DNA of 64,000 nt from Candidatus Binatia bacterium (GCA_963666515.2 OY762897.2:3808001-3872000); one strand, 5' to 3'. Numbered from the stretch's first letter, positions 5,938 through 42,785 are shown. Notes: generated by a model from the sequence alone, not told the origin. Numbers and translations are program-made.

Positions 5938-7536
5938 ATGTCACTGCGATATTTCCTCACCACGTTGACGGTTCTGGCGTGGGTCCTGGTTTCGGTGCCC
6001 GAGGCCGCGGCGCAATCGGCGGACACCATCATCTCGAACGGGAAGATATTGACCGTCGATCCAAGTTTTTCCGTCGCCCACAGTCTGGCTATCGATGACG
6101 GCCGGATCGTGGCCGTCGGTTCAGCCGAGGCGGTGGCCCGCCACAAAGGTCCGAATACCCGGATCATCGACCTGGGGGGCAGGACGGTGATCCCCGGCTT
6201 GATCGACAATCACTTCCATTTCATCCGCAGTGTCTGGAACTACCAGCGCGAAGTCCGTCTCGACGGGATCACGAGCCGGGCCGAGGCTTTGGCGATGATT
6301 GCCGCGAAAGCGGCTTCGGCGCCCAGGGAGCAGTGGATTACCGTGCTCGGCGGCTGGTCGCCGGCCCAGTTCAGGAACGAGCCGGGCGGCTTCACGCTCG
6401 CCGAGCTGGATGCGGCGGCACCCGACAATCCCGTCTACATTCAGCAAAGCTACCGCACGGCTTATGCCAACAGCGCGGCCTTGAAGGCGGTGGGCCGGGA
6501 CCCCGCCGAAGGCGCCCGGATGCGCGGGCGGCAAAGCTTCCGGGCTTTCGGGCGCTTCATCGGCTGGCGCAACAAGAGCTCCAGCAGAAAAGCGATACTC
6601 GCCTATATGGCCGCGCTGAATCGATTGGGTTTGACGACGGTCTACGATATCGGACGGCCGAGCGAGGGCAGGCTGGCGCCGGTTGCAAGCCTGGCTGCCG
6701 CCGGGCCGATGCCGCTGCGGGTCTTCCACACGCTGCGCTACCGCGCCACCGATCCCCAAAGCACGGACGATGCCCTGAAACTCATAACGGGTGGTGCTGC
6801 AAAGCCGTTCAGCACGACGGATCAATTCGGCGTGATCGGACTGGGCGAGCACATATACGGACCGATGCATGACCGGGCCAATCGCCGGGAACGCTGGGAA
6901 GAATCTGTCTGGGGTCCCGTACGCACCATTTCGCGCGCCGCCGCCAAGCACGGTTGGCCGATCCACGAACACACCATGAGCGGACCTACCATTTCCCAGT
7001 TCATCGATCTGGTCGAGGAGATCGCGTTCGACACCCCCAATGTCAAGGAGCTGCGCTGGACGCTGGCGCATTCGTTGGGGATCACCGAACCGGACCTGAA
7101 TCGAGCTCGCAGGTTGGGGGTGGCCGTTGCCGTGCACTCCCAGGCGATGATGAGCTCGCGGTCGCGCAACCGTCCGCCTCTCGGCAGCATCGAGCGTTCC
7201 GGAGTCCTGTGGGGGTTGGGCTCGGACGGCGCCATCGTCGCGCCGATCAACCCGTTTCTGACCCTCGGCTGGGCCGTGACGGGCCACAATATCGCGGGGC
7301 AGAGGGCCTGGAGCGAGGATCAACGCGTCTCCCGCAAGGCCGCCCTCATCGCCCATACGATCAACAACGCGAAGTTGCTGTTCAAGGAAAAGAGTCTCGG
7401 GTCACTGGAACCCGGCAAGCTGGCGGATCTCGTCGTGCTCGACCGTGACTACTTGACGGTCCCGCCGGAACAGATCGCCGCTATCCGGCCCGTCCTCACC
7501 ATGACAGGCGGTCGGATCACCTTCGAAGAGAACTAG
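5938..7536 (+). CDS. Amidohydrolase family 3 (YtcJ-like), secreted
   Basis: IDLGGRTVIPGLIDNHFH, GSDG and GSLEPGKLADLVVLDRD motifs; N-terminal signal peptide. Confidence 0.88.
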   Translation: MSLRYFLTTLTVLAWVLVSVPEAAAQSADTIISNGKILTVDPSFSVAHSLAIDDGRIVAVGSAEAVARHKGPNTRIIDLGGRTVIPGLIDNHFHFIRSVWNYQREVRLDGITSRAEALAMIAAKAASAPREQWITVLGGWSPAQFRNEPGGFTLAELDAAAPDNPVYIQQSYRTAYANSAALKAVGRDPAEGARMRGRQSFRAFGRFIGWRNKSSSRKAILAYMAALNRLGLTTVYDIGRPSEGRLAPVASLAAAGPMPLRVFHTLRYRATDPQSTDDALKLITGGAAKPFSTTDQFGVIGLGEHIYGPMHDRANRRERWEESVWGPVRTISRAAAKHGWPIHEHTMSGPTISQFIDLVEEIAFDTPNVKELRWTLAHSLGITEPDLNRARRLGVAVAVHSQAMMSSRSRNRPPLGSIERSGVLWGLGSDGAIVAPINPFLTLGWAVTGHNIAGQRAWSEDQRVSRKAALIAHTINNAKLLFKEKSLGSLEPGKLADLVVLDRDYLTVPPEQIAAIRPVLTMTGGRITFEEN

Positions 7537-7641
7537 GCCAGTCGGGACGCTCCGCGTGGAGCGCTTGTGCCCGCCAAATGTGCTATATTGCATCCGATTC
7601 GGCGTCACAGGTGCCGGATGATGCGAAAGGGAGTGGCGTAC

Positions 7642-8265
7642 ATGAGGGTAGTTCTCTCAAGAACGGTCGGCATCGCGGCGCTGGCGCTCGCGTTCGTTCT
7701 TGCGCCCGGTACGGAGGCGTCCGCCCACAAGTCCATCCTCAAGGTCGAGTTCGCCGAACGGCGCGAGCTGAACGTCCTCATCGACGACTTCGTCCTCACC
7801 GACAAGGACGGCGAGCGGGTGGAGTTCCGCAAGCTCCGGGGCAAGCCCCTGGTCATCAACTTCATGTACACGTCGTGCCCGGACGTTTGTCCGTTGCTGA
7901 CCGCGAGCCTCAAGATCCTCCGCGACCACATGAAGCCGGCGGAAGCCCGGGACATCCACTTCCTGTCCATCACCACGGACCCCGAAGTGGATACCCCGAA
8001 GGTGCTCAATGCCTACAGCCGGCGGCACGAGGCCGACGCCCCCAACTGGTCGTGGCTGACGGGCGAAGCCCGCGAGCTGGCGCCGGTGTGGCAGGGTTTC
8101 GGCGTCAGCGTGAAACGGATCGCCAAGGGGCTCATCGAGCACACCACGCTGACGGTGGTGGCGGACGCGGAGGGCTACATGCGCTTCGCCTACTTCGGCT
8201 CCGCACCGGACCCCGATGTGCTGTTGAAGGATCTGCGGGCGCTTGAAACACGTCCATCGACCTGA
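7642..8265 (+). CDS. SCO1/SenC-family copper-binding protein
   Basis: FMYTSCPDVCP (CxxxC), SITTDPEVDTP and conserved His (IEHT); ATG 7642 follows AAGGGAG. Confidence 0.9.
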   Translation: MRVVLSRTVGIAALALAFVLAPGTEASAHKSILKVEFAERRELNVLIDDFVLTDKDGERVEFRKLRGKPLVINFMYTSCPDVCPLLTASLKILRDHMKPAEARDIHFLSITTDPEVDTPKVLNAYSRRHEADAPNWSWLTGEARELAPVWQGFGVSVKRIAKGLIEHTTLTVVADAEGYMRFAYFGSAPDPDVLLKDLRALETRPST

Positions 8266-8283
8266 CGGAATTTCTCGTGGTGG

Positions 8284-8394
8284 CGTCCTTCGACTTCGCG
8301 CCGCTGACGCGGCGCTACGCTCAGGACGAACGGAGACATGTTTTCCCGTTCGCCCTGAGCGTAGCGAGGCGTAGCCGAGCGAAGTCGAAGGGCG
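8284..8394. repeat. REP-like palindrome family A
   Basis: CGTCCTTCGACTTCGC...CGCTACGCTCAGGACGAACGG / CCGTTCGCCCTGAGCGTAGCG...GCGAAGTCGAAGGGCG nested inverted repeat. Confidence 0.85.
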
Positions 8395-8405
8395 GAGGCT
8401 GAGCC

Positions 8406-10505
8406 GTGGAATCGCTGCTGAGCGATATCGCATGGGAGACCATCTGGGTCTTTTACGAGGCCTCGATCTATCTCCTGGCCGGCTTCTTCGTCGCCGGACT
8501 CCTGCACGTCTACCTGCCGGCGAACGTCATCGCGAGGCACCTGGGCCGGAACGACGCGCGCTCGGTGGGCCTGGCGGCGCTTTTCGGCGCGCCGATCCCC
8601 CTGTGCTCGTGCGGCGTCCTGCCGGCGGCGGCGTCCCTGAAGCGGCAGGGGGCCGGGCGGGCGCCGCTGGTCTCGTTCCTGATCTCGACCCCCGAGACCG
8701 GGGTGGACTCCGTGGCGTTGACCTACGGGCTCATGGGCCCGGTCATGGCGGTGGTCCGTCCCGTGGTGGCGGTGGTGACCGCGCTGATCGCCGGCATCGC
8801 CTCCATGGGCGTCAGGGAGGACCCGGAAGGCGCGCCGCGGTCCGGCGCATCCTGTGACGACGCCTGTGCGGAGAGCGGAACGCCCGAAGATTCGCGCGAC
8901 GACGCCTGTGCGCCCGACAGTGCGCTGCCGCACGGCCGCCGCCGTTTCTTCCATTCCCTGGAATACGGCTTCAGCTCGGTGCTGGACGACATCGCGCTGT
9001 CGCTCGTGGTCGGCTTGGTGCTGACCGGCATCCTGGCCGGCCTTCTGCCCGACGGCTTCTTCACCGACGTGCTCGGGTGGGGCTCCGGTCTCATGCCGAT
9101 GCTGGCGATGATCGTGGTCGGCCTGCCGCTGTACACCTGCGCCAGCGCCTCCACCCCCATCGCCGCGGCGCTCATGGCCAAGGGTCTTTCCCCCGGTGCC
9201 GCGCTCGTCTTCCTGCTGGTGGGGCCGGCCACCAACCTGGCCACCATGACCGTGGTCGGACAGCTCCTGGGCCGCCGTCATCTCGGCGTCTACCTCGGCG
9301 CCATCGTGCTGGTGAGCCTGGCCGCGGGCCTGCTGGTGGACGCGACCGTGGCGGACTACATCCACGTGGCCCCCTTCGGCGACCTGGGGCAGGACGGCGA
9401 CGTCGTATTCGCCCTCAAGGCGCTGTCCGCGGTGGCCCTGGCGCTGCTGCTGCTGCGGAGCTTCCGGCGCAAGGGCATTGGCGCCACTTGGCGGGATGCC
9501 GCGACACAGCTCCGTCAGACCGGCCAGGCTCTCAGGGCCTTGCGCCCCGGCAACCTCCTCCAGGGACCGGTGCTCGCGGCTGCGCTTGTGATCGCGCTGC
9601 TCGCCGCCGTCCCCGCGTTCACGCTCATCGTCGGGCCGGGCCAGCGCGGCGTCGTCCAGCGGTTCGGCCGGGTGGTGGCCGCCGGTCTCGAACCCGGCCT
9701 GTACTTCCATCTGCCGCCGCCCTTCGGCAACGGAACCGCGGTGGACGTGGCGCTGGTCCGCCAGGTGGCGGTGGGCTTCCGGGGCGGCGTCAACGGCGCC
9801 CGGCCTGTGCTCGACGAGCAGGCGTTCTACCTCACCGCGGACGGCAACATCATCGACATGCGGGCCGTGGTCCAGTACCGCGTCCGGGATCCGGCGGTGT
9901 ACGCCCTGGGCGTCGAGGAGACCCCGGCGGTGGTGCTCGGGCTGGCCCGGCGCGAGCTGGTCAGCCTGTTGAGCCGCAAGCCCATCGACAGGATCTACAC
10001 CGTGGACCGGAGGGCCACGGAACGGGCGCTGCGCGACCGCCTGGCCAAGCGCCTTGCGGCCCTGGGAATCGGCAGCGAGGTCCTGGACGTGCGGCTGCTG
10101 GACGTGCACGCGCCGGCACGGGTCCACGACGCCTTCCGCGACGTCGCCAGCGCGCTGGAGGATCGCCAGCGCGACATCCACGTGGCCACCGGCGGGGCGA
10201 AGCAGTCCACCGCGGCGGCCGCGGGCGAGGCCGCGCGCATCACCGAGCGCGCCGAGGGACGCGCGGTGCGCGAGGTCAAGCGGGCCGAGGGACGCTCCGC
10301 CGCCTTCCGCGCCACCGCGGCGGTGCACGCCGCCAGCCCTGCGGTCACCGAAGCCCGCCTCTACCTGGAAACCCTGGAGGATTCCCTGGAGCTGCCGCGG
10401 AAGTACATCTACATGCCGGGGACGGGCGTGGACCTCTGGCTGGGCAGCCCGTCGGTGGATTTCATGAACCTCGGGGCTCCCCATCCTCGAAGCGGAGATC
10501 GATAG
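8406..10505 (+). CDS. DUF318/ArsP-type (SO_0444-like) permease fused to a C-terminal HflK-like SPFH domain
   Basis: N-terminal half: PIPLCSCGVLP, FLISTPETGVDS, LYTCASASTPIAA, GAALVFLLVGPATN. C-terminal half: VVQRFGRVV...PGLYFHLPPP, LTADGNIID, VHDAFRDVASA, TEARLYLETLE. One continuous frame. Confidence 0.85.
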   Translation: MESLLSDIAWETIWVFYEASIYLLAGFFVAGLLHVYLPANVIARHLGRNDARSVGLAALFGAPIPLCSCGVLPAAASLKRQGAGRAPLVSFLISTPETGVDSVALTYGLMGPVMAVVRPVVAVVTALIAGIASMGVREDPEGAPRSGASCDDACAESGTPEDSRDDACAPDSALPHGRRRFFHSLEYGFSSVLDDIALSLVVGLVLTGILAGLLPDGFFTDVLGWGSGLMPMLAMIVVGLPLYTCASASTPIAAALMAKGLSPGAALVFLLVGPATNLATMTVVGQLLGRRHLGVYLGAIVLVSLAAGLLVDATVADYIHVAPFGDLGQDGDVVFALKALSAVALALLLLRSFRRKGIGATWRDAATQLRQTGQALRALRPGNLLQGPVLAAALVIALLAAVPAFTLIVGPGQRGVVQRFGRVVAAGLEPGLYFHLPPPFGNGTAVDVALVRQVAVGFRGGVNGARPVLDEQAFYLTADGNIIDMRAVVQYRVRDPAVYALGVEETPAVVLGLARRELVSLLSRKPIDRIYTVDRRATERALRDRLAKRLAALGIGSEVLDVRLLDVHAPARVHDAFRDVASALEDRQRDIHVATGGAKQSTAAAAGEAARITERAEGRAVREVKRAEGRSAAFRATAAVHAASPAVTEARLYLETLEDSLELPRKYIYMPGTGVDLWLGSPSVDFMNLGAPHPRSGDR

Positions 10506-10506
10506 A

Positions 10507-11505
10507 ATGGCCAGACGCATTGCCGCGGTTCTCCTGCTGGCGCTGGTGGTGGTGGTCGCCGCCACTTCCTTCGTGGTGGTGGACGAGAGGAGCCACGCGG
10601 TCATCACCCAGTTCGGCAGGCCGGTCTCGGTGCTGAGCGACGCCGGCTTCTATCTCAAGCTGCCGGTGCCCTTCCAGCGCGCGCGTCTCCTCGACAAGCG
10701 CATCCTCATCACCAACACGCAGGAGACCGAGCTGCTGACCGCGGACAAGAAGAACGTGCTGGTCTCCACCTACATCTCCTGGAAGATCGCCGACCCGTTG
10801 CGGTACCTGGCGGCGCTGCGCACCCGGGAGTTCGCGGAGAACCGTCTGGCCGCGCTGGTGCAGTCGGAGTTGGGCAGCGCCCTGGGGGACCGGCCCTTCG
10901 GCACGATCCTCGGCGCCGGCGGCAACGGCGCCAGCCTGGCCGAGCTGGAAGGATCGGTGGCGGACGCCGTGGCCAAGGTGGCGCAGGAGGACCTGGGGAT
11001 CGAGGTGGTGAGCCTGGGCGTGACCCGCCTCATCTTCCCGCAGCAGAACCTCGACAGCGTGTTCGCGCGCATGCGGGCCGAGCGTGCGCGCATCGCCCGC
11101 GGCCATCGCTCGGAGGGACGCGCCGAGGCCCAGAAGATCGCCGCCCGGGCGGAGCGGGAAAGGGCGCGGATCATCGCCGACGCCGAGGCCGAGGCTGCCA
11201 AGCTGCGGGGCAGGGGCGAGGCGGAGGCGGCGCGCATCTACGCGGGGGCCTACGAGGGACACGGCGAGTTCTATCGCTTCCTGCGCACGCTGGAGGCCTA
11301 CAAGAAGGTCCTGAACGAGAAGACCACGCTGGTGCTGCCGGCGGACTCGCCGTTCCTGGATCTCTTGACGTCGCGGATTCCGAGCGCCGGAGCGGGACCG
11401 CGGCGGGACGGCCAGGCGCCGGAGCGGAAGGGGGAAGCGCCGGCTCGGGCCGGCGCCTCCCACGATGCCAAGCCGGGCGAGAGCGGGCGCGACACGGGCT
11501 CATGA
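10507..11505 (+). CDS. hflC: HflC-like SPFH protein
   Basis: ITQFGRP, LLTADKKN, VFARMRAER and FYRFLRTLEAY motifs; starts 1 nt after the previous stop. Confidence 0.85.
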   Translation: MARRIAAVLLLALVVVVAATSFVVVDERSHAVITQFGRPVSVLSDAGFYLKLPVPFQRARLLDKRILITNTQETELLTADKKNVLVSTYISWKIADPLRYLAALRTREFAENRLAALVQSELGSALGDRPFGTILGAGGNGASLAELEGSVADAVAKVAQEDLGIEVVSLGVTRLIFPQQNLDSVFARMRAERARIARGHRSEGRAEAQKIAARAERERARIIADAEAEAAKLRGRGEAEAARIYAGAYEGHGEFYRFLRTLEAYKKVLNEKTTLVLPADSPFLDLLTSRIPSAGAGPRRDGQAPERKGEAPARAGASHDAKPGESGRDTGS

Positions 11506-12398
11506 GCGGACGGCGGCGATACTGGACGCTGCTCTCGGGCGCGGTCCTTTTGGCGGGCTACCTGGGGCTCGGGGTCTACAACGTCGAATCCGACGAGAGC
11601 GCGGTGGCCTACGTGCTCGGCCGGGCGGTGGGCCGCGACGTGCTTCCGGGAATACACTGGAACCCGCCGTGGCCGTGGGGTCGGGTGGCGGTCGCCCGGA
11701 CCGCGACCAACTTCATCATGCCGGTGGAGCACTCCGATCCCGGAGGAACCGAGGAGTCCCTCTGGCTGCTGGGCGACACCAACGTCATCGTCGGCAGGCT
11801 GGGCATCCAGTACAGCATCCGCAGCCTGACCCGGTTCGAGGTCTCTCACGAAGACCCGCGCGAGCTGCTGCGCCGGGCCGGCCGCCGGATCGTGACGCGG
11901 TTCCTGGCCGGCGAGAACGTGGACGCCGCGCTCACCACCCGCAGGAGCGACCTGCTGACCGCGGTGCAGCGGCAGGTCCAGTCGATACTCGACGGCCACG
12001 GCACAGGCATCGAGATCCAGTCGGTGAACATCCAGGCGCTGGCGCCGCCCGAGCAGGGCGGCGTGCGCCAAGCCTTTCAGGAGGTCCAGAGCGCCCTGGC
12101 GGACCGGGAGCGGGTGGTGGAGGAGGCCCGCGCCGACCGCGCCCAGATCCTCGCGGAGGCGGAGGGGGAAGCGGAGCACCGCGTGAACCAGGCCGAGGCG
12201 GCGCGCCACCGGCGCGTGGAGATCGCCAAGGGCGAAGGCGAGCGCTTCCGCGGTCTGGCGCTGGAGCACCGCAGGACCCCCAAGCTCACCGAAGAACGGC
12301 TCTACCTCGAAGCCATCGAAGAGATCCTGCCGCGCATGGAAACTTACGTCGTCCAGTCGGGACCGGACGGCAAGGTCAACCTGCGCGTGGTCCGGTGA
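11502..12398 (+). CDS. hflK: HflK-like SPFH protein
   Basis: PGIHWNPPWP, LLGDTNVI, AFQEVQSA and TEERLYLEAIEEIL motifs; ATGA overlap with hflC. Confidence 0.8.
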   Translation: MSGRRRYWTLLSGAVLLAGYLGLGVYNVESDESAVAYVLGRAVGRDVLPGIHWNPPWPWGRVAVARTATNFIMPVEHSDPGGTEESLWLLGDTNVIVGRLGIQYSIRSLTRFEVSHEDPRELLRRAGRRIVTRFLAGENVDAALTTRRSDLLTAVQRQVQSILDGHGTGIEIQSVNIQALAPPEQGGVRQAFQEVQSALADRERVVEEARADRAQILAEAEGEAEHRVNQAEAARHRRVEIAKGEGERFRGLALEHRRTPKLTEERLYLEAIEEILPRMETYVVQSGPDGKVNLRVVR

Positions 12399-12422
12399 GG
12401 CGCGAAGGGCCGGTTCCCCGCC

Positions 12423-12467
12423 TTGACAACCCGATGTACTGAGAATAGGATATCATTATCTATTCTC
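12423..12467 (+). promoter_or_regulatory. Sigma70 promoter overlapped by a Fur/Zur-like inverted repeat
   Basis: TTGACA (12423-28), 17-bp spacer, TAGGAT (12446-51); perfect IR GAGAATAG-N11-CTATTCTC enclosing GATATCATTATC. Confidence 0.7.
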
Positions 12468-12488
12468 GTTCGAGGGGGGTCGTATAAA

Positions 12489-13730
12489 ATGAAGAGACTG
12501 ACAGGTTCTTTCCTTGCGATCGTTGCGGGCCTTTGGATCGGTATTCACCCGGCGCTCGGCAGCGAGTCGAAGGTGGGCGTGGTAGCCAGCATCCTGCCCG
12601 TCGCCTATGTCGCCCAGGAGTTGGGAGGCGAGCGCGCCCAGGTCGACGTGCTGGTGCCGCCGGGCGCGAGCCCCCACACTTTCGAACCGGTACCGAGCGA
12701 CATGGTCAAGCTGCAACGCGCCCGCCTGTTCCTGAAGGTCGGCGCCGGCCTGGACGCATGGTCCGACAGGCTCCGGGGCGCGGGTTCCGGCGAGCTCGAG
12801 AGGGTAACCCTCATCTCCGTGCCGGGATTGAAGCCCCTCGAGGGCGGCCATGATCACCATGATCACGGCCACGGGAAGAAGCACGACGACCACGGCCACG
12901 ACCAGGAGAAGAAGGCGGAGAAACACGACGACCACGGCCACGACGAGAAACATGCGAAGAAGGACGATCACCACGGCCATGACCATGGTGAAAAGAAGGC
13001 GAAGAAGCATGACGATCATGGCCACGAGGAAAAGCACGCGAAACACGATGACCACGGTCACGACGAGAAGAAAGCCGAGAAACACCACGACCACGGCCAT
13101 GACGAGAAACATGCGAAGAAGCATGATGACCACGGCCACGACGAGAAGAAAGCCGAGAAGCACGACGACCATGGCCACGAGAAGCATGCCGAGGAGTCGG
13201 GTGAGGGAATGGACCCCCACTTCTGGCTGGACCCGATACGGGTCAGGGACGCGGTGGTTCCGGTGATCGTGGAACATCTCATCGAAGCGGATCCGGCGGG
13301 CAAGGAATACTACGAGAAGCGCGGCCAGGACTTCCATAAGCGGTTGACGGCGCTGGATGTCCAGGTCCGGCGGGAGCTTGCCAAGGCCAAGGGCCGGAAG
13401 TACGTCGCCTTTCACAACGCTTGGGTCTACTTTTCCGAGCGGTACAACGTCGAGGAAGTGGCGGTGGTCCAGGAGTTCGCGGGTGAGGAGCCGACCCCCA
13501 GGGAGGTGGCCGCGCTGGTGCAAGGCGCGCGTGAGGCCGGGATCCGGAACATCCTGGTGGAGCCGCAGTTCAGTCCGCGGGTGGCCCAGACCATCGCAAG
13601 CGAGTTCGGCGGCGGCACGGTGATGGTGGACCCGTTGGGGGACTCCGGCGATCCGGCGCGTTCCAGCTACGAGAAGCTGATGCTGTTCAACGCGCGCGCC
13701 TTCGCGCAGGCGTTGGGGGGCAAGAATTGA
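12489..13730 (+). CDS. znuA: Zn/Mn ABC transporter substrate-binding protein with very long His-rich loop
   Basis: VPPGASPHTFEP, DPHFWLDP, AFHNAWVYF and GEEPTP motifs; signal peptide. Confidence 0.88.
   Translation: MKRLTGSFLAIVAGLWIGIHPALGSESKVGVVASILPVAYVAQELGGERAQVDVLVPPGASPHTFEPVPSDMVKLQRARLFLKVGAGLDAWSDRLRGAGSGELERVTLISVPGLKPLEGGHDHHDHGHGKKHDDHGHDQEKKAEKHDDHGHDEKHAKKDDHHGHDHGEKKAKKHDDHGHEEKHAKHDDHGHDEKKAEKHHDHGHDEKHAKKHDDHGHDEKKAEKHDDHGHEKHAEESGEGMDPHFWLDPIRVRDAVVPVIVEHLIEADPAGKEYYEKRGQDFHKRLTALDVQVRRELAKAKGRKYVAFHNAWVYFSERYNVEEVAVVQEFAGEEPTPREVAALVQGAREAGIRNILVEPQFSPRVAQTIASEFGGGTVMVDPLGDSGDPARSSYEKLMLFNARAFAQALGGKN
12849..13187 (+). repeat. Intragenic tandem repeat encoding HDDHGH-DEK(K/H)A(E/K)K units
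   Basis: About 9 His-rich units; about 35 His in about 113 aa (manual count). Confidence 0.9.
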
Positions 13731-14515
13731 CCGAACGCAACGAACCGGTCGTGGTGGGGCTGAACGGCGTGTCGGTGGAGTTGGGCGGCCGCAGCGTCCT
13801 GCACGACATCAACTTCAACGTGCACGAAGGCGGGTTCGTGGGCATCGTGGGCCCCAACGGAGCCGGCAAGACCACGCTCCTGCGCACGATCCTCGGCCTC
13901 GTGCCCGTGGTGAGCGGCCGGGTGGAAGTGTTCGGCTTCCCGCCCGGCCGCAACGGCTCCCACGCCATCGGCTACGTGCCGCAGCGCCAGAGCATCGCCG
14001 ACAACTTCCCGGCCACGGTCGGTGACGTGGTGATGATGGGGCGGCTGCGGCACCTGGGGCTCATGAGGTTCCCCGGCCGGGAGGACTGGCAGCGGGTGGA
14101 CGACAGCCTGGCGCTCGTGGGCATGCGGGACCGCAGGGACCGCGCCGTGGGACGCCTGTCCGGCGGCGAGCAGCGCCGGATCATGCTGGCGCAGGCGCTG
14201 TGCGCCAGCACCCGCCTGCTGGTGCTCGACGAGCCCACGGTGGGGCTCGACCTCCCCGCGGAGCACGAGTTCTACGCGCTGCTGCGGAAGCTCATCCGCG
14301 ATCTGACCCTGACCATCGTGGCGGTGTCCCACGACCTGGTGGCGCTGGCCGGCGAGACCGACGAGCTGATCTGCATCAACCACCGCATGCACATCCACGG
14401 CAACGCCGAGGAGGTGATCCACAGCCACGCCATCCGCGAGGCCTACTGCTGCGAGTTCGACTTCCTGGCCGGCGAGATCGCCCACCACGAGAGCCACGAC
14501 CACGTCGAGTCCTGA
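13727..14515 (+). CDS. znuC: Metal ABC transporter ATP-binding protein
   Basis: GPNGAGKTT, IGYVPQR, LSGGEQRR, LVLDEPT; His/Cys-rich C-terminal tail; TTG start overlaps znuA stop. Confidence 0.88.
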   Translation: MTERNEPVVVGLNGVSVELGGRSVLHDINFNVHEGGFVGIVGPNGAGKTTLLRTILGLVPVVSGRVEVFGFPPGRNGSHAIGYVPQRQSIADNFPATVGDVVMMGRLRHLGLMRFPGREDWQRVDDSLALVGMRDRRDRAVGRLSGGEQRRIMLAQALCASTRLLVLDEPTVGLDLPAEHEFYALLRKLIRDLTLTIVAVSHDLVALAGETDELICINHRMHIHGNAEEVIHSHAIREAYCCEFDFLAGEIAHHESHDHVES

Positions 14516-14563
14516 CGACCGGCGCCTCCATCACGGGTTGAACGTCCTCCCATAGCGTCCCTC

Positions 14564-15364
14564 ATGTTCGAATTTGCCTTCATGCAGCGCGCCCTGGCGG
14601 CGGCGGTCCTGGTGGGCCTGCTGTGCGGTATCCTGGGCTTCTTCGTGGTCCTGCGGCGCCTGGCGTTCATCGGCGTGGGCATTTCCCACTCGGCCATCGG
14701 CGGCGTCGCCATCGGCATCCTGGCGGGCTGGAACCCGCTCGTGACCGGCGCCGTTTTCGCGGTCTCCGTGGCGCTGGGCATCGCGCTGGTCAGCCAGAGC
14801 GGCCGCGTCAGCGAAGACACCGTGATCGGCGTGTTCTTCTCGGGGTCGATGGCGCTGGGGATCGTGCTCTTCAGCATGAAGAGCGGCTACCAGCAGGATC
14901 TCTTCAGCTACCTCTTCGGCAACGTGCTGGCCATCTCCACCGCCGAGCTCGTTGCCCTTTCCTGCGCGAGCGCGGTGATCATGGCGGTCATCGTCCTGAC
15001 CTTCAAGGAGCACCTGCTGATCGCGTTCGACGAGGAAGTGGCCTCGGCCTACGGCCACAAGGTCGTCGCGCTCAACGTGCTGCTGCTGGTGATGCTGGCC
15101 CTGACCGTGGTCATCGGCGTGCGGCTGGTGGGCCTGCTGCTCATCCAGGCTCTGCTGGTGGTGCCGGCGGCCATCGCGGCGCTGTGCGTGATGAACTTTC
15201 GCTGGCAGGTGCTGCTGTCTGCGCTGGTGGGGTCCGTCTCCGGCGTCGCCGGCCTGGTGCTGGCCTATCAACTGGACATCGCCGCCGGCGGAGCCATCGT
15301 GCTGGTGGCCGTGGCGCTCTTCTTCGTCACCCTGGTGGCCCGCCTGCTGGGCAGCCGCGGGTAG
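14564..15364 (+). CDS. znuB: Metal ABC transporter permease
   Basis: FMQRAL, GISHSAIGG, LFSYLFGNVL and FDEEVA motifs. Confidence 0.88.
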   Translation: MFEFAFMQRALAAAVLVGLLCGILGFFVVLRRLAFIGVGISHSAIGGVAIGILAGWNPLVTGAVFAVSVALGIALVSQSGRVSEDTVIGVFFSGSMALGIVLFSMKSGYQQDLFSYLFGNVLAISTAELVALSCASAVIMAVIVLTFKEHLLIAFDEEVASAYGHKVVALNVLLLVMLALTVVIGVRLVGLLLIQALLVVPAAIAALCVMNFRWQVLLSALVGSVSGVAGLVLAYQLDIAAGGAIVLVAVALFFVTLVARLLGSRG

Positions 15365-15434
15365 GGAACCGCGACGTCTGCCCGCACCCCGCGGCATCCA
15401 CCCGTACCCCTTTCGTCATTCTCGCTCCCCTTCC

Positions 15435-15460
15435 GTCATTCCGGCGAAAGCCGGAATCCA
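15435..15460. repeat. REP-like palindrome family B (single arm)
   Basis: GTCATTCCGGCGAAAGCCGGAATCCA between convergent znuB genes. Confidence 0.8.
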
Positions 15461-15478
15461 GGGGTGGCGGAGGGGTGC

Positions 15479-16285
15479 TTACGAGGCGCCGGAGCCTGCC
15501 TTCACCGGGAAACGCAGCCGCGTCACCACGAACAACGCCAGCGCCGCGGTCACGATGGAGGGACCCGATGGCGTATCCAGCGTCGCCGAGGCCAGCAGCC
15601 CGCCGGCGATGGCGAGAATCCCCGCCGCGGCCGCGCCGACGGCCATCTTCTCGGGACTCGAGGCAAAGCGCCGGACCGTCGCTGGCGGTATCACCAGCAA
15701 CGCCACCACCAGCAGGATCCCGACGATCTTCACCGCCACCGATATGAGCGCCGCCACCAGGATGCCGAACACCAGCCGCGCGCGTTCCGGCCGGAGTCGC
15801 GCCACCGTGGCGAGATCGACGCTCACGGTGGCCGCCAGGAGCGGGCGCCAGATCCACCACAGCACCCCCAGGACGCAGGCGCCGCCCGCCCAGATGACAG
15901 CGAGGTCCGTTTGCGTCACCGCCAGGATGTCGCCGAAGAGCAGCGCGTGCAGGTCGACTCGCATGTCCGGGAAGAAGGCCAGGACCACCAGGCCCAGCGA
16001 AAGCCCTCCGTGGGCGAGCAGGCCGAGTAAGGTGTCGGTGGGCAGGGTGTCGCTACGCTCGAGAAAGAACATGATCAGCACCACGGAGGAGGCCGTGGCG
16101 AAGATGCCAATGGAAATGTCGATGTCCAGCACGATGGCCACCGCGACCCCCAGCAGGGCCGAGTGGGCGATGGTCTCGCCGAAGTAGGCCAGTCGCCGCC
16201 AGACCACGAAGCACCCCGCCGGACCGGTGACCAGCGCCAGTCCCACACCGGCCAGCAGCGCGCGCATGAAGAAGTCGTCCAGCAT
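15479..16285 (-). CDS. znuB: Second zinc ABC transporter permease
   Basis: MLDDFFMRALLAG, VVWRRLAYFGETIAHSALLG and LLFGDILAV motifs. Confidence 0.9.
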   Translation of the reverse strand: MLDDFFMRALLAGVGLALVTGPAGCFVVWRRLAYFGETIAHSALLGVAVAIVLDIDISIGIFATASSVVLIMFFLERSDTLPTDTLLGLLAHGGLSLGLVVLAFFPDMRVDLHALLFGDILAVTQTDLAVIWAGGACVLGVLWWIWRPLLAATVSVDLATVARLRPERARLVFGILVAALISVAVKIVGILLVVALLVIPPATVRRFASSPEKMAVGAAAAGILAIAGGLLASATLDTPSGPSIVTAALALFVVTRLRFPVKAGSGAS

Positions 16286-16288
16286 GGA

Positions 16289-16987
16289 TCAATACCGGGA
16301 GTCGTCCTCGTCGCTCTCCGCCAACGACCGGAAGGCTTCGATGCCGAAGGGCGGGTCGTCATGTTCGTGCGGCACCAGGACCACGAGGTCGTCGCCCGTG
16401 TTCATGGCCTTCTGGAGGTCGTGGGAGATGATCAGGACGCCGCAGCCGAGGTCGCGGCGGATCCCTTCGAGCAGCTCCTGCAAGACGTCCGTGCCGCTGG
16501 CGTCGACGCCCTGTTCGGGTTCGTCAAGCACCAGCAGGTCGGGCCGGTGGATGAGCGCCCGCGCCAGCAGCAACCGCTGGAACTCGCCCCCCGACAGGGT
16601 GGTGACCGGCGGGTCGCCGAGCCGTTCGAGACCCACGGCAGCGAGGGCGGCATCGATCCGGGCGGGAGCGAAACGGCCGGTCAGAGTCATCAGGCGGCGC
16701 AGGGTCAACGGCAGGGTCGGGGTCACCGTCAGTCTCTGCGGGACATAGCCCACGTGCAGAGACGGCGCCCGCTCCACCTGACCCTCGGTGAGGTCGATCA
16801 AGCCGAGCACGGCCTTGACGCAGGTGGACTTGCCGGCGCCGTTGGCGCCGATGAGGTAGACCATGTCGCCGCGGGCCACCTTGAGGTCCACGTGGCGGAA
16901 GATCCAGCGCTCGCCCCGCCGCACGCCGATGTCGCGGGCGTCGACGAGCCTGTCGGGTGCGGCATGCGGTGTGCCGGGGGTGTCCAT
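16289..16987 (-). CDS. znuC: Second zinc ABC transporter ATP-binding protein
   Basis: GANGAGKST, VGYVPQR, LSGGEFQR, LLVLDEP. Confidence 0.88.
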   Translation of the reverse strand: MDTPGTPHAAPDRLVDARDIGVRRGERWIFRHVDLKVARGDMVYLIGANGAGKSTCVKAVLGLIDLTEGQVERAPSLHVGYVPQRLTVTPTLPLTLRRLMTLTGRFAPARIDAALAAVGLERLGDPPVTTLSGGEFQRLLLARALIHRPDLLVLDEPEQGVDASGTDVLQELLEGIRRDLGCGVLIISHDLQKAMNTGDDLVVLVPHEHDDPPFGIEAFRSLAESDEDDSRY

Positions 16988-17088
16988 CAGCGCGCGCGGG
17001 AGCTTGGGGCAATCGATCGCACTTGATCGCTTGAAGCGTTCCGGTTAGTTTCTCGCAAAAATCCAACCCGCGCTCAAGGGGCGACGTC

Positions 17089-18024
17089 ATGATGGGCAGA
17101 AACGTTTTGCCGGTACTGCTGTTTTCCTGCGCGATGGCCGGATCCGCGGCGGCCAGCGCCGCGGATCGGGTCGTGGCCACGTTCAAGCCGGTGCACTCGC
17201 TGGTGAGCGCCGTGATGGCCGGGGTGGGCGAGCCTCACCTGATCATGCGCGGCGCGGCCTCGCCGCACACCTACCGCATGCGCCCGTCCGACGCCCGGGT
17301 GATCGGTAAAGCCCGCGTCATCTTCATGATCGGCGAGGCCGTCGAGAATACGCTGGCCGGACCCATCCGCAAGCTCGGCGGAAAAGCCCGCGTGGTGGAG
17401 TTGGGAAAGGTGCCGGGGCTGGTCCGCATGCCGCTCCGCAAGGGCGGCGGGTTCGAGGACGAAGACCACGGCCACGGACATGATCACGGGCACGAAGACG
17501 ACGCCTTCGACATGCACGTCTGGCTCGACCCGGTGAATGCCGGGTTGATGGCGCTGGTCATCGCCCGCAACCTTGGCGAGGTCGATCCGGCCAATGCCGC
17601 GAAGTACCAGGCCAACGCCGACGCCGTGATCGCCGGACTGGACGAGTTGACCGCGAAGCTCGACGCGGAACTGGCCCCGGTGCGGGACAAGCCCTTCATC
17701 GTGTTCCACGACGCCTACCAGTACTTCGAGAAGCGCTTCGGCCTCAGGGCCGTGGGTTCTGCGGTGGTCAGCACGGGCCGGTCGCCCGGCGTCCGCCGCG
17801 TCAGGGAACTGCGCAAGAAGGTGCGCGACCTGGGTGTCGTCTGCGTACTCGCCGAGCCCCGCTACGACCCGCGCTTCGTCAAGCTCATTACCGAAGGCAC
17901 CAAGGCGCGCGGCGGCACCGTCGATCCCGCGGGCACGGCCATCAAGCCCGGACCCGGGATGTACGTCAGCCTGTTGCGCAACATGGCCAAATCGTTCAGG
18001 GAGTGCCTGGCGCCAGCCGGTTAG
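17089..18024 (+). CDS. znuA: Second zinc ABC transporter substrate-binding protein
   Basis: VVATFKPVHSLV, GAASPHTY, short His loop, DMHVWLDP, VFHDAYQYFE; divergent from znuCB. Confidence 0.9.
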   Translation: MMGRNVLPVLLFSCAMAGSAAASAADRVVATFKPVHSLVSAVMAGVGEPHLIMRGAASPHTYRMRPSDARVIGKARVIFMIGEAVENTLAGPIRKLGGKARVVELGKVPGLVRMPLRKGGGFEDEDHGHGHDHGHEDDAFDMHVWLDPVNAGLMALVIARNLGEVDPANAAKYQANADAVIAGLDELTAKLDAELAPVRDKPFIVFHDAYQYFEKRFGLRAVGSAVVSTGRSPGVRRVRELRKKVRDLGVVCVLAEPRYDPRFVKLITEGTKARGGTVDPAGTAIKPGPGMYVSLLRNMAKSFRECLAPAG

Positions 18025-40457: not shown

Positions 40458-40584
40458 ATGGCGTCCTTCGACTTCGCTTCGCTACGCTCAGGACGAACGG
40501 TGTTGGGACTATGGCACCGGAGCTTGTTTTCCGTTCGTCCTGAGCGTAGCGCCGCGTCAGCGGCGCGAAGTCGAAGGACGCCAT
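40458..40584. repeat. REP-like palindrome family A
   Basis: Perfect 20-bp outer IR ATGGCGTCCTTCGACTTCGC / GCGAAGTCGAAGGACGCCAT with an inner IR. Confidence 0.9.
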
Positions 40585-42669: not shown

Positions 42670-42785
42670 GGTCCTTCGACTTCGCGCCGCTGGCGCGGCG
42701 CTACGCTCAGGACGAACGGTTATGACAGCGTTTTCTCCGTTCGTCCTGAGCGTAGCGACGCGAAGCGGTGCGAAGTCGAAGGACC
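42670..42785. repeat. REP-like palindrome family A (inside the operon)
   Basis: GGTCCTTCGACTTCGC ... GCGAAGTCGAAGGACC. Confidence 0.9.

Follow-up and report, generated by a model that had tools for sequence, protein, structure and literature searches.

What does it mean for a membrane transporter to be built into a subunit of a bacterial SPFH cage? The question is raised by a three-gene module in a 64,000-nucleotide stretch of DNA from Candidatus Binatia bacterium (GCA_963666515.2 OY762897.2:3808001-3872000; "the window" denotes this whole stretch), in which an SO_0444/ArsP_1 permease and an HflK-like SPFH protein are encoded as one fusion protein (Kfus), followed by an hflC-like gene (hflC') and a second, unfused hflK-like gene (hflK2). 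HflK and HflC form a large alternating cage on the periplasmic face of the membrane, enclosing FtsH. Rings and cages of this kind (HflK/C, prohibitin, stomatin, flotillin and erlin) have been solved recently, and for most of them both the content and the reason for enclosing it are debated. The reading argued here, to which a probability of about 0.5 is assigned, is that the three proteins constitute a dedicated HflK/C-type hetero-oligomer in which the transporter is tethered to part of the K subunits.

Both halves of Kfus lie in a single frame of 699 residues. Residues 14-351 match the NF033936 profile (SO_0444 Cu/Zn efflux) at 357.8 bits (cut-off 300), covering model positions 3-349 of 351, and Pfam ArsP_1 (PF03773) at 145.8 bits (cut-off 32.3). 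Pfam Band_7 (PF01145; cut-off 23.6) matches residues 408-595 at 72.2 bits and is also found in the other two module proteins, the three scores being 72.2, 76.7 and 38.8 bits. HflC' scores 189.4 bits with the TIGR01932 hflC profile (cut-off 134.4); the SPFH part of Kfus (147.6 bits) and HflK2 (148.0 bits) are both under the cut-off of 159.4 for TIGR01933 hflK. Kfus follows the domain plan of HflK, with a transmembrane (TM) helix, SPFH1/2, a coiled coil, a C-terminal cap and an adjoining coupled hflC gene. Read directly from the DNA, the junction between the fusion and hflC' is TAG-A-ATG, with a gap of 1 nucleotide, and that between hflC' and hflK2 is tcATGAgc, with a 4-nucleotide ATGA overlap. 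A reading made beforehand from the sequence only had described one 699-residue frame joining a Cys-motif permease to an HflK-type SPFH domain, with CSC, TC and CDDAC/DDAC motifs and translational coupling to hflC and hflK; the profile scans agree with this architecture, the motifs are present in the translation, and both junctions are as it had stated. In databases, the fused proteins are named either "SO_0444 family Cu/Zn efflux transporter" or "HflK", each of which hides half of the protein.

The fusion recurs widely. A protein search limited to lengths of 384-1224 residues returned 4836 matches, and both ArsP_1 (PF03773) and Band_7 (PF01145) were found in all of the best 120 clusters (46-100% identity, 638-780 residues). 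A scan of species-representative genomes left 80 loci, comprising 24 with the fusion and 56 with an unfused SO_0444 homologue; a single open reading frame (ORF) of 654-802 residues spans both halves in 23 of the 24 fused loci, and the 24th leaves its contig. The fused loci span at least eight named phyla, with hosts from Binatia, Myxococcota, "Deltaproteobacteria", Spirochaetales, Planctomycetota, Acidobacteriota, Gemmatimonadetes, Rokuibacteriota and Eiseniibacteriota, and the fusion is kept across 33-100% identity and in DNA of 42-74% G+C. Conservation of this extent is far beyond chance. Independent sequence is continuous as well: in public assemblies, positions 8396-12398 are covered by a contig of 5313 bases (X5) that has 137 substitutions and is gap-free, 8396-9989 by a second (X6), likewise gap-free, and the permease-SPFH junction (9120-9729) by an RNA-library contig (X23), the X23 contigs being only ~91-92% identical and hence from a relative, so that they show continuity and not transcription. 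An assembly or frameshift artefact, which a stop or shift between the two parts would have signalled, is ruled out by the 120 clusters, the 23 single ORFs and these gap-free contigs.

The two genes behind the fusion are equally constant. The order fusion, hflC', hflK2 was found in 21 of the 24 fused loci, and in the other three the contig ends inside hflC' (L018, L054) or inside the fusion (L078). Within the fetched flanks, SPFH genes were found near none of the 56 unfused SO_0444 homologues; therefore, the SPFH pair occurs only with the fusion, and the unfused HflK2 is an obligate, co-evolving part of the module. The survey of other genomes that the sequence-only reading had called for thus returned transporter-HflK fusions beside hflC and hflK in many lineages. 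The module is widespread but patchy: among the matches listed for 201 sampled genomes of the phylum to which the window belongs, the full-length fusion was found only in the window's genome and in G148, and unfused SO_0444 homologues were found in ~35 genomes.

Several further observations concern individual loci. The genome of L012 (G219), a close relative, encodes a second ArsP_1-HflK fusion of 834 residues with two SPFH genes (L132:1140-5838); it lies 8 kb away from the first, on the other strand, and adjoins a Na/Pi cotransporter gene. At L078:4902-5744 (Rokuibacteriota), an hflC-like gene lies upstream of the fusion with a formamidase-like gene between them, which may be a rearranged variant of the module. 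At L130:942-4010 (G175), an HflK-like SPFH domain ends a frame of 1022 residues whose N-terminal 700 residues have no Pfam match; this could be a fusion of a different kind, or the frame could be over-extended, the DNA being high in GC. Among genomes of the window's phylum, unfused SO_0444 matches in G153, G101, G064, G104, G011, G063 and G184 each contain one in-frame TGA. The SO_0444 family has a conserved CSC motif, which is USC in selenoprotein members, according to the accessible part of 10.1101/2022.07.06.499078, and these seven homologues fit putative selenocysteine (USC) members.

How the two halves are joined is seen in an AlphaFold2 model of the fusion, built on an alignment of 65 sequences with a mean predicted local distance difference test score (pLDDT) of 82.1. 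The permease consists of two repeats whose helices are broken at the invariant CSC (67-69) and YxC (243-245), and the helix count is ambiguous because of these breaks; the last permease TM helix comprises residues 332-356. C67, S68, C69 and C245 (in YTC) are invariant in 65/65 aligned fusions, and the loop at residues 147-172 is variable, being His/Asp-rich in more distant relatives (alignment columns 150-200). The linker (residues 351-390) contains a helix at 358-378 and has 8 K/R against 1 D/E; by the positive-inside rule it is predicted to lie in the cytoplasm and the SPFH part in the periplasm, which is the arrangement of HflK. Short basic N-termini also precede the TM helix in HflC' and in HflK2, in which just 9 residues lie ahead of it.

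The SPFH half of the model resembles HflK. A 73-residue coiled-coil helix (571-643) is followed by a second helix (645-660) and then by C-terminal strands, and the top Foldseek matches are the HflK chains 7vhq_E (E = 7e-13), 9cz2 and 7wi3. With the full-length model, Foldseek returned SPFH structures only, and no solved relative of the permease half was listed. The SPFH part of Kfus and HflK2 each align to residues 82-343 of E. coli HflK, and the best PDB match of HflC' is E. coli HflC. The nautilus model orders HflK residues 79-355, according to the accessible part of PMC12048511; the alignments therefore cover nearly the whole ordered protein. Four residues of Kfus, H568, H574, R578 and S582, are clade-specific and invariant in 23/23 sequences, the two histidines being invariant also in 65/65 of the larger fusion alignment, and H435 is present in 17/23. 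H568 is shared by 23/23 Kfus and 4/4 HflKs that are fused to CDF transporters (described below), and was found in 0/25 HflK2 and 0/4 canonical HflKs.

Transporters of other families are joined to HflK in the same manner. Four fusions of CDF (PF01545) to HflK (L125-L128) were found in long frames among the phylum matches; an hflC-like gene follows in three of the four, and an hflK-like gene as well in two of those, the fetched stretches of the remaining CDF loci ending too early to show the following genes. With one CDF-HflK protein as the query, both domains were found in 119 of the best 120 clusters. EamA-HflK fusions were found at L129 and L133, the latter with two SPFH genes behind it, and 5/6 clusters found carry both domains. 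The design is the one seen in the window, namely a transporter-HflK fusion, an HflC-like and an HflK-like protein, with a different transporter family. CDF proteins are exporters. In an enlarged tree, the CDF-fused HflKs form their own clade (support 100), which makes a three-way split without a resolved order with Kfus (94) and with canonical K plus HflK2 (93). The HflK2 clade (98) includes the free HflK of the CDF triads, the EamA-fused HflK clusters with the canonical HflKs, and the HflC of the CDF triads branches outside a clade made up of HflC' and canonical HflC. H568 and W678 are common to Kfus and the CDF-fused HflKs. The idea of a cage with a built-in transporter, put forward in the sequence-only reading, gains weight because CDF and EamA proteins are also fused to HflK in the same layout; as a whole, the interpretation given in that reading is partly supported.

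The module proteins are paralogues of a housekeeping set. In the window's genome, the canonical hflK and hflC genes overlap each other and lie 1 Mb from the module (291.2 and 242.4 bits); HflK2 and HflC' are 31% and 37% identical to their respective products, and a canonical HflK above the cut-off was found on another contig or far off in 16/21 carrier genomes, including this one. In a first SPFH tree of 76 proteins (quick IQ-TREE with Shimodaira-Hasegawa-like approximate likelihood ratio support), the clades are Kfus (82), HflC' (86), HflK2 (99), canonical K (95) and canonical C (67), and Kfus branches outside HflK2 plus canonical K. The sub-clades within Kfus, HflC' and HflK2 are congruent, and the parts have therefore been inherited together. 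A position apart from FtsH-associated HflK/C, which the sequence-only reading had left to a tree, thus stands for Kfus and HflK2, and for HflC' in the first tree but not in the enlarged one. Its statement that no ftsH lies in the window is correct: tblastn with the genome's FtsH found nothing there, ftsH was found near the module in none of 89 loci, and the genome's single ftsH lies at C1:4555741, outside the window (C1:3808001-3872000). In E. coli, Arg191 of HflK contacts FtsH residues 62-64, according to the accessible part of PMC12048511. In the HMMER alignment to the PDB chain, position 191 is Ala, the numbering being ambiguous, and Kfus lacks the nearby Arg185 and Arg193.

These features suggest a mechanism in which a ring of HflC' in alternation with both HflK paralogues, probably shaped into a dome, would stand on the periplasmic side of the inner membrane in the manner of E. 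coli HflK/C, as an assembly separate from the housekeeping FtsH-HflK/C complex. Kfus would carry its SO_0444-type permease with thiolate motifs where canonical HflK has its cytoplasmic N-terminal tail, and the short linker of conserved length would hold the transporter at a fixed, short distance from the TM wall of the ring. The HflK/C ring is ~20 nm across. With 24 TM helices in such a ring, twelve 9-helix permeases would leave it crowded, above all within, and this geometry would favour a second K subunit: HflK2 would fill the other K positions, so that only some of them bear the bulky transporter. Export would be the direction of transport, because of the exporter function of CDF proteins and because Shewanella requires SO_0444 to grow when stressed by Zn and Cu, according to the accessible part of PMC3219624.

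The SPFH part might instead act as an open scaffold or microdomain anchor that clusters the transporter or gates it allosterically, in arcs or small oligomers with no sealed dome, which we consider improbable. Stomatin and flotillins modulate channels and transporters, and CDF transporters normally dimerise via a cytoplasmic domain; in the fused CDF proteins, the Pfam match covers the membrane part only and the HflK part lies within ~70 residues of it, and the SPFH part could replace the oligomerisation domain. A solved complex of stomatin with aquaporin 1 (PDB 9zd2) is listed by Foldseek, and endogenous E. coli HflK/C is described in the accessible part of PMC12048511 as open and nautilus-like, not sealed. 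However, the coiled coil and the C-terminal elements, which form the wall and cap in HflK/C, are retained in all three module proteins, and the strict need for two extra subunit types (21/24 loci) exceeds what simple anchoring would require.

The genes that flank the module (Table 1) provide the strongest functional clue: the recurrent neighbours are zinc importers, a fact that is fully explained by no reading. ZnuABC lies directly downstream in the window and in L011-L017, and in L013-L017 the znuA start is at, or a few bases from, the hflK2 stop. A ZIP gene abuts the module upstream in L069 and L077 and downstream in L090, and a TonB-dependent receptor gene lies upstream in L016, L041 and L067. 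The module would accordingly have a role in the homeostasis of zinc, possibly also of copper or cadmium, alongside zinc import systems; it might control or confine the export of thiophilic metals (Cu and Cd by-catch) that enter when broad-range importers are on.

The same neighbourhood could indicate that the permease imports zinc or feeds periplasmic acceptors (ZnuA or SCO-type proteins), the SPFH chamber serving as a place of hand-off under zinc shortage. In three or more distinct sub-clades the module is bordered by a zinc importer, the importers belonging to two unrelated families; the five loci just mentioned show coupling of znuA to hflK2; receptors of the TonB-dependent type stand upstream in three loci; and the histidines H435, H568 and H574 of Kfus would be periplasmic. 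Nevertheless, this explanation is very unlikely: the only experimental datum for the family is the efflux-type phenotype reported in the accessible part of PMC3219624, the CDF proteins that bear the same HflK fusion are exporters, and the window's znuA has a promoter-like site and a candidate operator of its own, whereas none was found for the module, which leaves co-regulation unsupported here.

Table 1. Features of the module and its surroundings (positions in the window).
Feature	Position	Strand	Basis or remark
Kfus, fusion gene of SO_0444/ArsP_1 permease and HflK-like SPFH protein, 699 residues	8406..10505	+	ORF, profile scans
hflC', hflC-like gene, 332 residues	10507..11505	+	TIGR01932 match, ORF
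hflK2, second, unfused hflK-like gene, 298 residues	11502..12398	+	TIGR01933 below cut-off, ORF
Permease domain of Kfus, residues 14-351	8445..9458	+	NF033936, invariant columns, AlphaFold2 helices
Variable Cys/Asp-rich loop of Kfus, residues 147-172, with CDDAC and DDAC	8844..8921	+	pLDDT <50, disordered
Basic linker, then HflK-type TM helix (387-405) of Kfus	9459..9620	+	AlphaFold2, charge count
SPFH1/2, coiled coil and C-terminal strands of Kfus	9627..10505	+	Band_7, Foldseek, alignment
SCO1/SenC-family gene, upstream	7567..8265	+	Family scan
Palindromic intergenic repeat, ~105 nucleotides, between SCO gene and fusion, outside module	8290..8400	.	Genome matches
znuA, znuC, znuB, ABC zinc importer, directly downstream	12489..15364	+	Family scans
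Promoter-like site TTGACA-17-TAGGAT	12423..12451	+	Only sigma-70-like site in 7400-15500
AT-rich palindrome, 8-nucleotide arms, 11-nucleotide spacer	12441..12467		Overlaps promoter-like site

With regard to regulation, the sequence-only reading had placed the operon between a SCO gene and a Fur/Zur-controlled znuACB; the position is correct, and the control has to be reworded, as there is no Fur-family gene in the window (the nearest lies ~47 kb before its start) and only a candidate operator. The palindrome ahead of znuA is the only perfect AT-rich one with 8-nucleotide arms in the whole 64-kb window, and a similar palindrome occupies the same place before znuA in L011 and L012, the only other loci with a Fur-like palindrome there, which makes a Fur/Zur-type operator plausible. 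The znuA start is most likely ATG 12489 rather than TTG 12423, and ZnuA (12489-13730) has a His/Asp-rich insert of ~120 residues with repeated HDDHGHD/EKKAEK-like units. A second znu set lies at 15479-18024, with znuB2 and znuC2 on the minus strand and a divergent znuA2, encoding a protein without the His-rich loop, on the plus strand. An identical string of 14 nucleotides is found at 17003-17016, in the divergent promoter region of this set, and at ~6989-7002 of L014, where it either immediately precedes the fusion gene or coincides with its start; in L014, no ATG, GTG or TTG start was found upstream of the conserved N-terminus of the fusion. Upstream of the fusion itself, a scan of 25 loci found no inverted repeat or AT-rich window in common.

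On the upstream side, a SCO gene is present only in the window, L011 and L012 (3/25 loci), and a SCO/copper link was therefore rejected as a conserved feature; being lineage-specific, the neighbour makes a weak case for copper. The gap between SCO gene and fusion is 140 nucleotides in the window, against ~30 in L011, because the intergenic repeat has been inserted. This repeat has 83 matches on both strands of its own genome, with further copies near 40468-40580 and 42673-42782, and it is a site where metagenome contigs accumulate and break off.

The reading of a dedicated assembly has to be weighed against one in which the fusion keeps the exporter next to FtsH, so that quality control or rapid degradation tunes efflux against import, for example during zinc scarcity. 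Several facts weigh against the former, and a number of them speak for the latter. HflK2 is the sister of canonical HflK in both trees (support 92-93), HflC' passes the HflC equivalog cut-off, and in the enlarged tree the HflC' sequences do not separate as one clade from canonical HflC; both trees are of the "quick" kind, with four canonical pairs only, all from carrier genomes. Some HflK2 orthologues pass the TIGR01933 cut-off (203-234 bits), among them that of G004 at 203 bits, and another HflK was not found in G004, G005, G209, G214 and G216 (5/21 carriers; metagenome-assembled genomes of unestablished completeness), in which HflK2 and HflC' may be the partners of FtsH. In addition, no regulator or operator was found for the module itself, and in 9/21 loci whose flanks could be read it has no metal gene beside it; where importers are present, an exporter beside them is physiologically puzzling and fits a simple "efflux compartment" poorly.

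For control through FtsH, moreover, the neighbouring importers would supply a reason for reciprocal regulation, the recurrence of one design with three unrelated exporter families fits a generic turnover device, and HflK/C is a known partner of FtsH that governs membrane-protein degradation, as described in the accessible part of PMC12048511. It is nonetheless judged unlikely, although less so than the scaffold or the acquisition route. Sixteen of the 21 genomes keep a canonical pair, yet the module comes with an HflC' and an HflK2 for itself; none of the loci has ftsH as a neighbour; and the invariant residues of Kfus are absent from canonical HflK. FtsH may nevertheless bind, and the dedicated hetero-oligomer is the preferred reading.

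A broader proposal, put forward tentatively, is that of "client-tethered" SPFH cages: FtsH-independent rings of HflC' and HflK2 with HflKs that covalently bear members of three unrelated exporter families. If it is true, such a cage would be a periplasmic vault over exporters that confines, buffers or hands on the exported substrate; the conserved histidines of the fused subunit could sense or hold metal, and the zinc importers could draw on the same pool. It would be the first SPFH compartment with a client and a purpose that are evident from the gene itself. The module provides a second, independent clue to roles of HflK/C-type proteins besides the regulation of FtsH, and an experimentally tractable three-gene system for the position of the transporter, the presence of FtsH and the effect of the ring on transport.

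Literature searches, with subscription journals and supplements outside their coverage, found no papers on transporter-HflK fusions, and the module apparently presents known parts (SPFH ring subunits and transporter families) in a new, conserved and undescribed combination. Its closest counterpart is the E. coli FtsH-HflK/C complex (7vhp, 7wi3, 9cz2), which likewise has K- and C-type SPFH subunits from coupled genes, each with an N-terminal TM helix, SPFH1/2, a long coiled coil and a C-terminal cap. The module differs in having three subunit types instead of two, in the 9-helix transporter that replaces the cytoplasmic tail of HflK, in a client that is covalently tethered rather than enclosed non-covalently, and in the lack of linkage to ftsH. 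SO_0444 and its 56 unfused homologues stand alone as proteins of ~350 residues without SPFH genes, whereas the permease of the module is fused; the SO_0444 operon has a ZntR-like regulator, according to the accessible part of PMC3219624, whereas the window's module adjoins zinc importers. Stomatin and flotillin systems (e.g., human stomatin-aquaporin 1, 9zd2) also combine an SPFH oligomer with a membrane transport protein, but non-covalently, in homo-oligomers or two-subunit rings that face the cytoplasm, whereas the module is built on a fusion and is predicted to face the periplasm. SPFH-NfeD pairs (E. coli QmcA-YbbJ, 8z5g) resemble it in joining an SPFH protein and a dedicated membrane partner in one operon; that partner is of the NfeD family, not a transporter, and the pairs are without HflC/HflK alternation or a fused permease. 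In the module, by comparison, the client is fixed by gene fusion and the partners by a conserved operon, a design repeated with at least three transporter families in many phyla.

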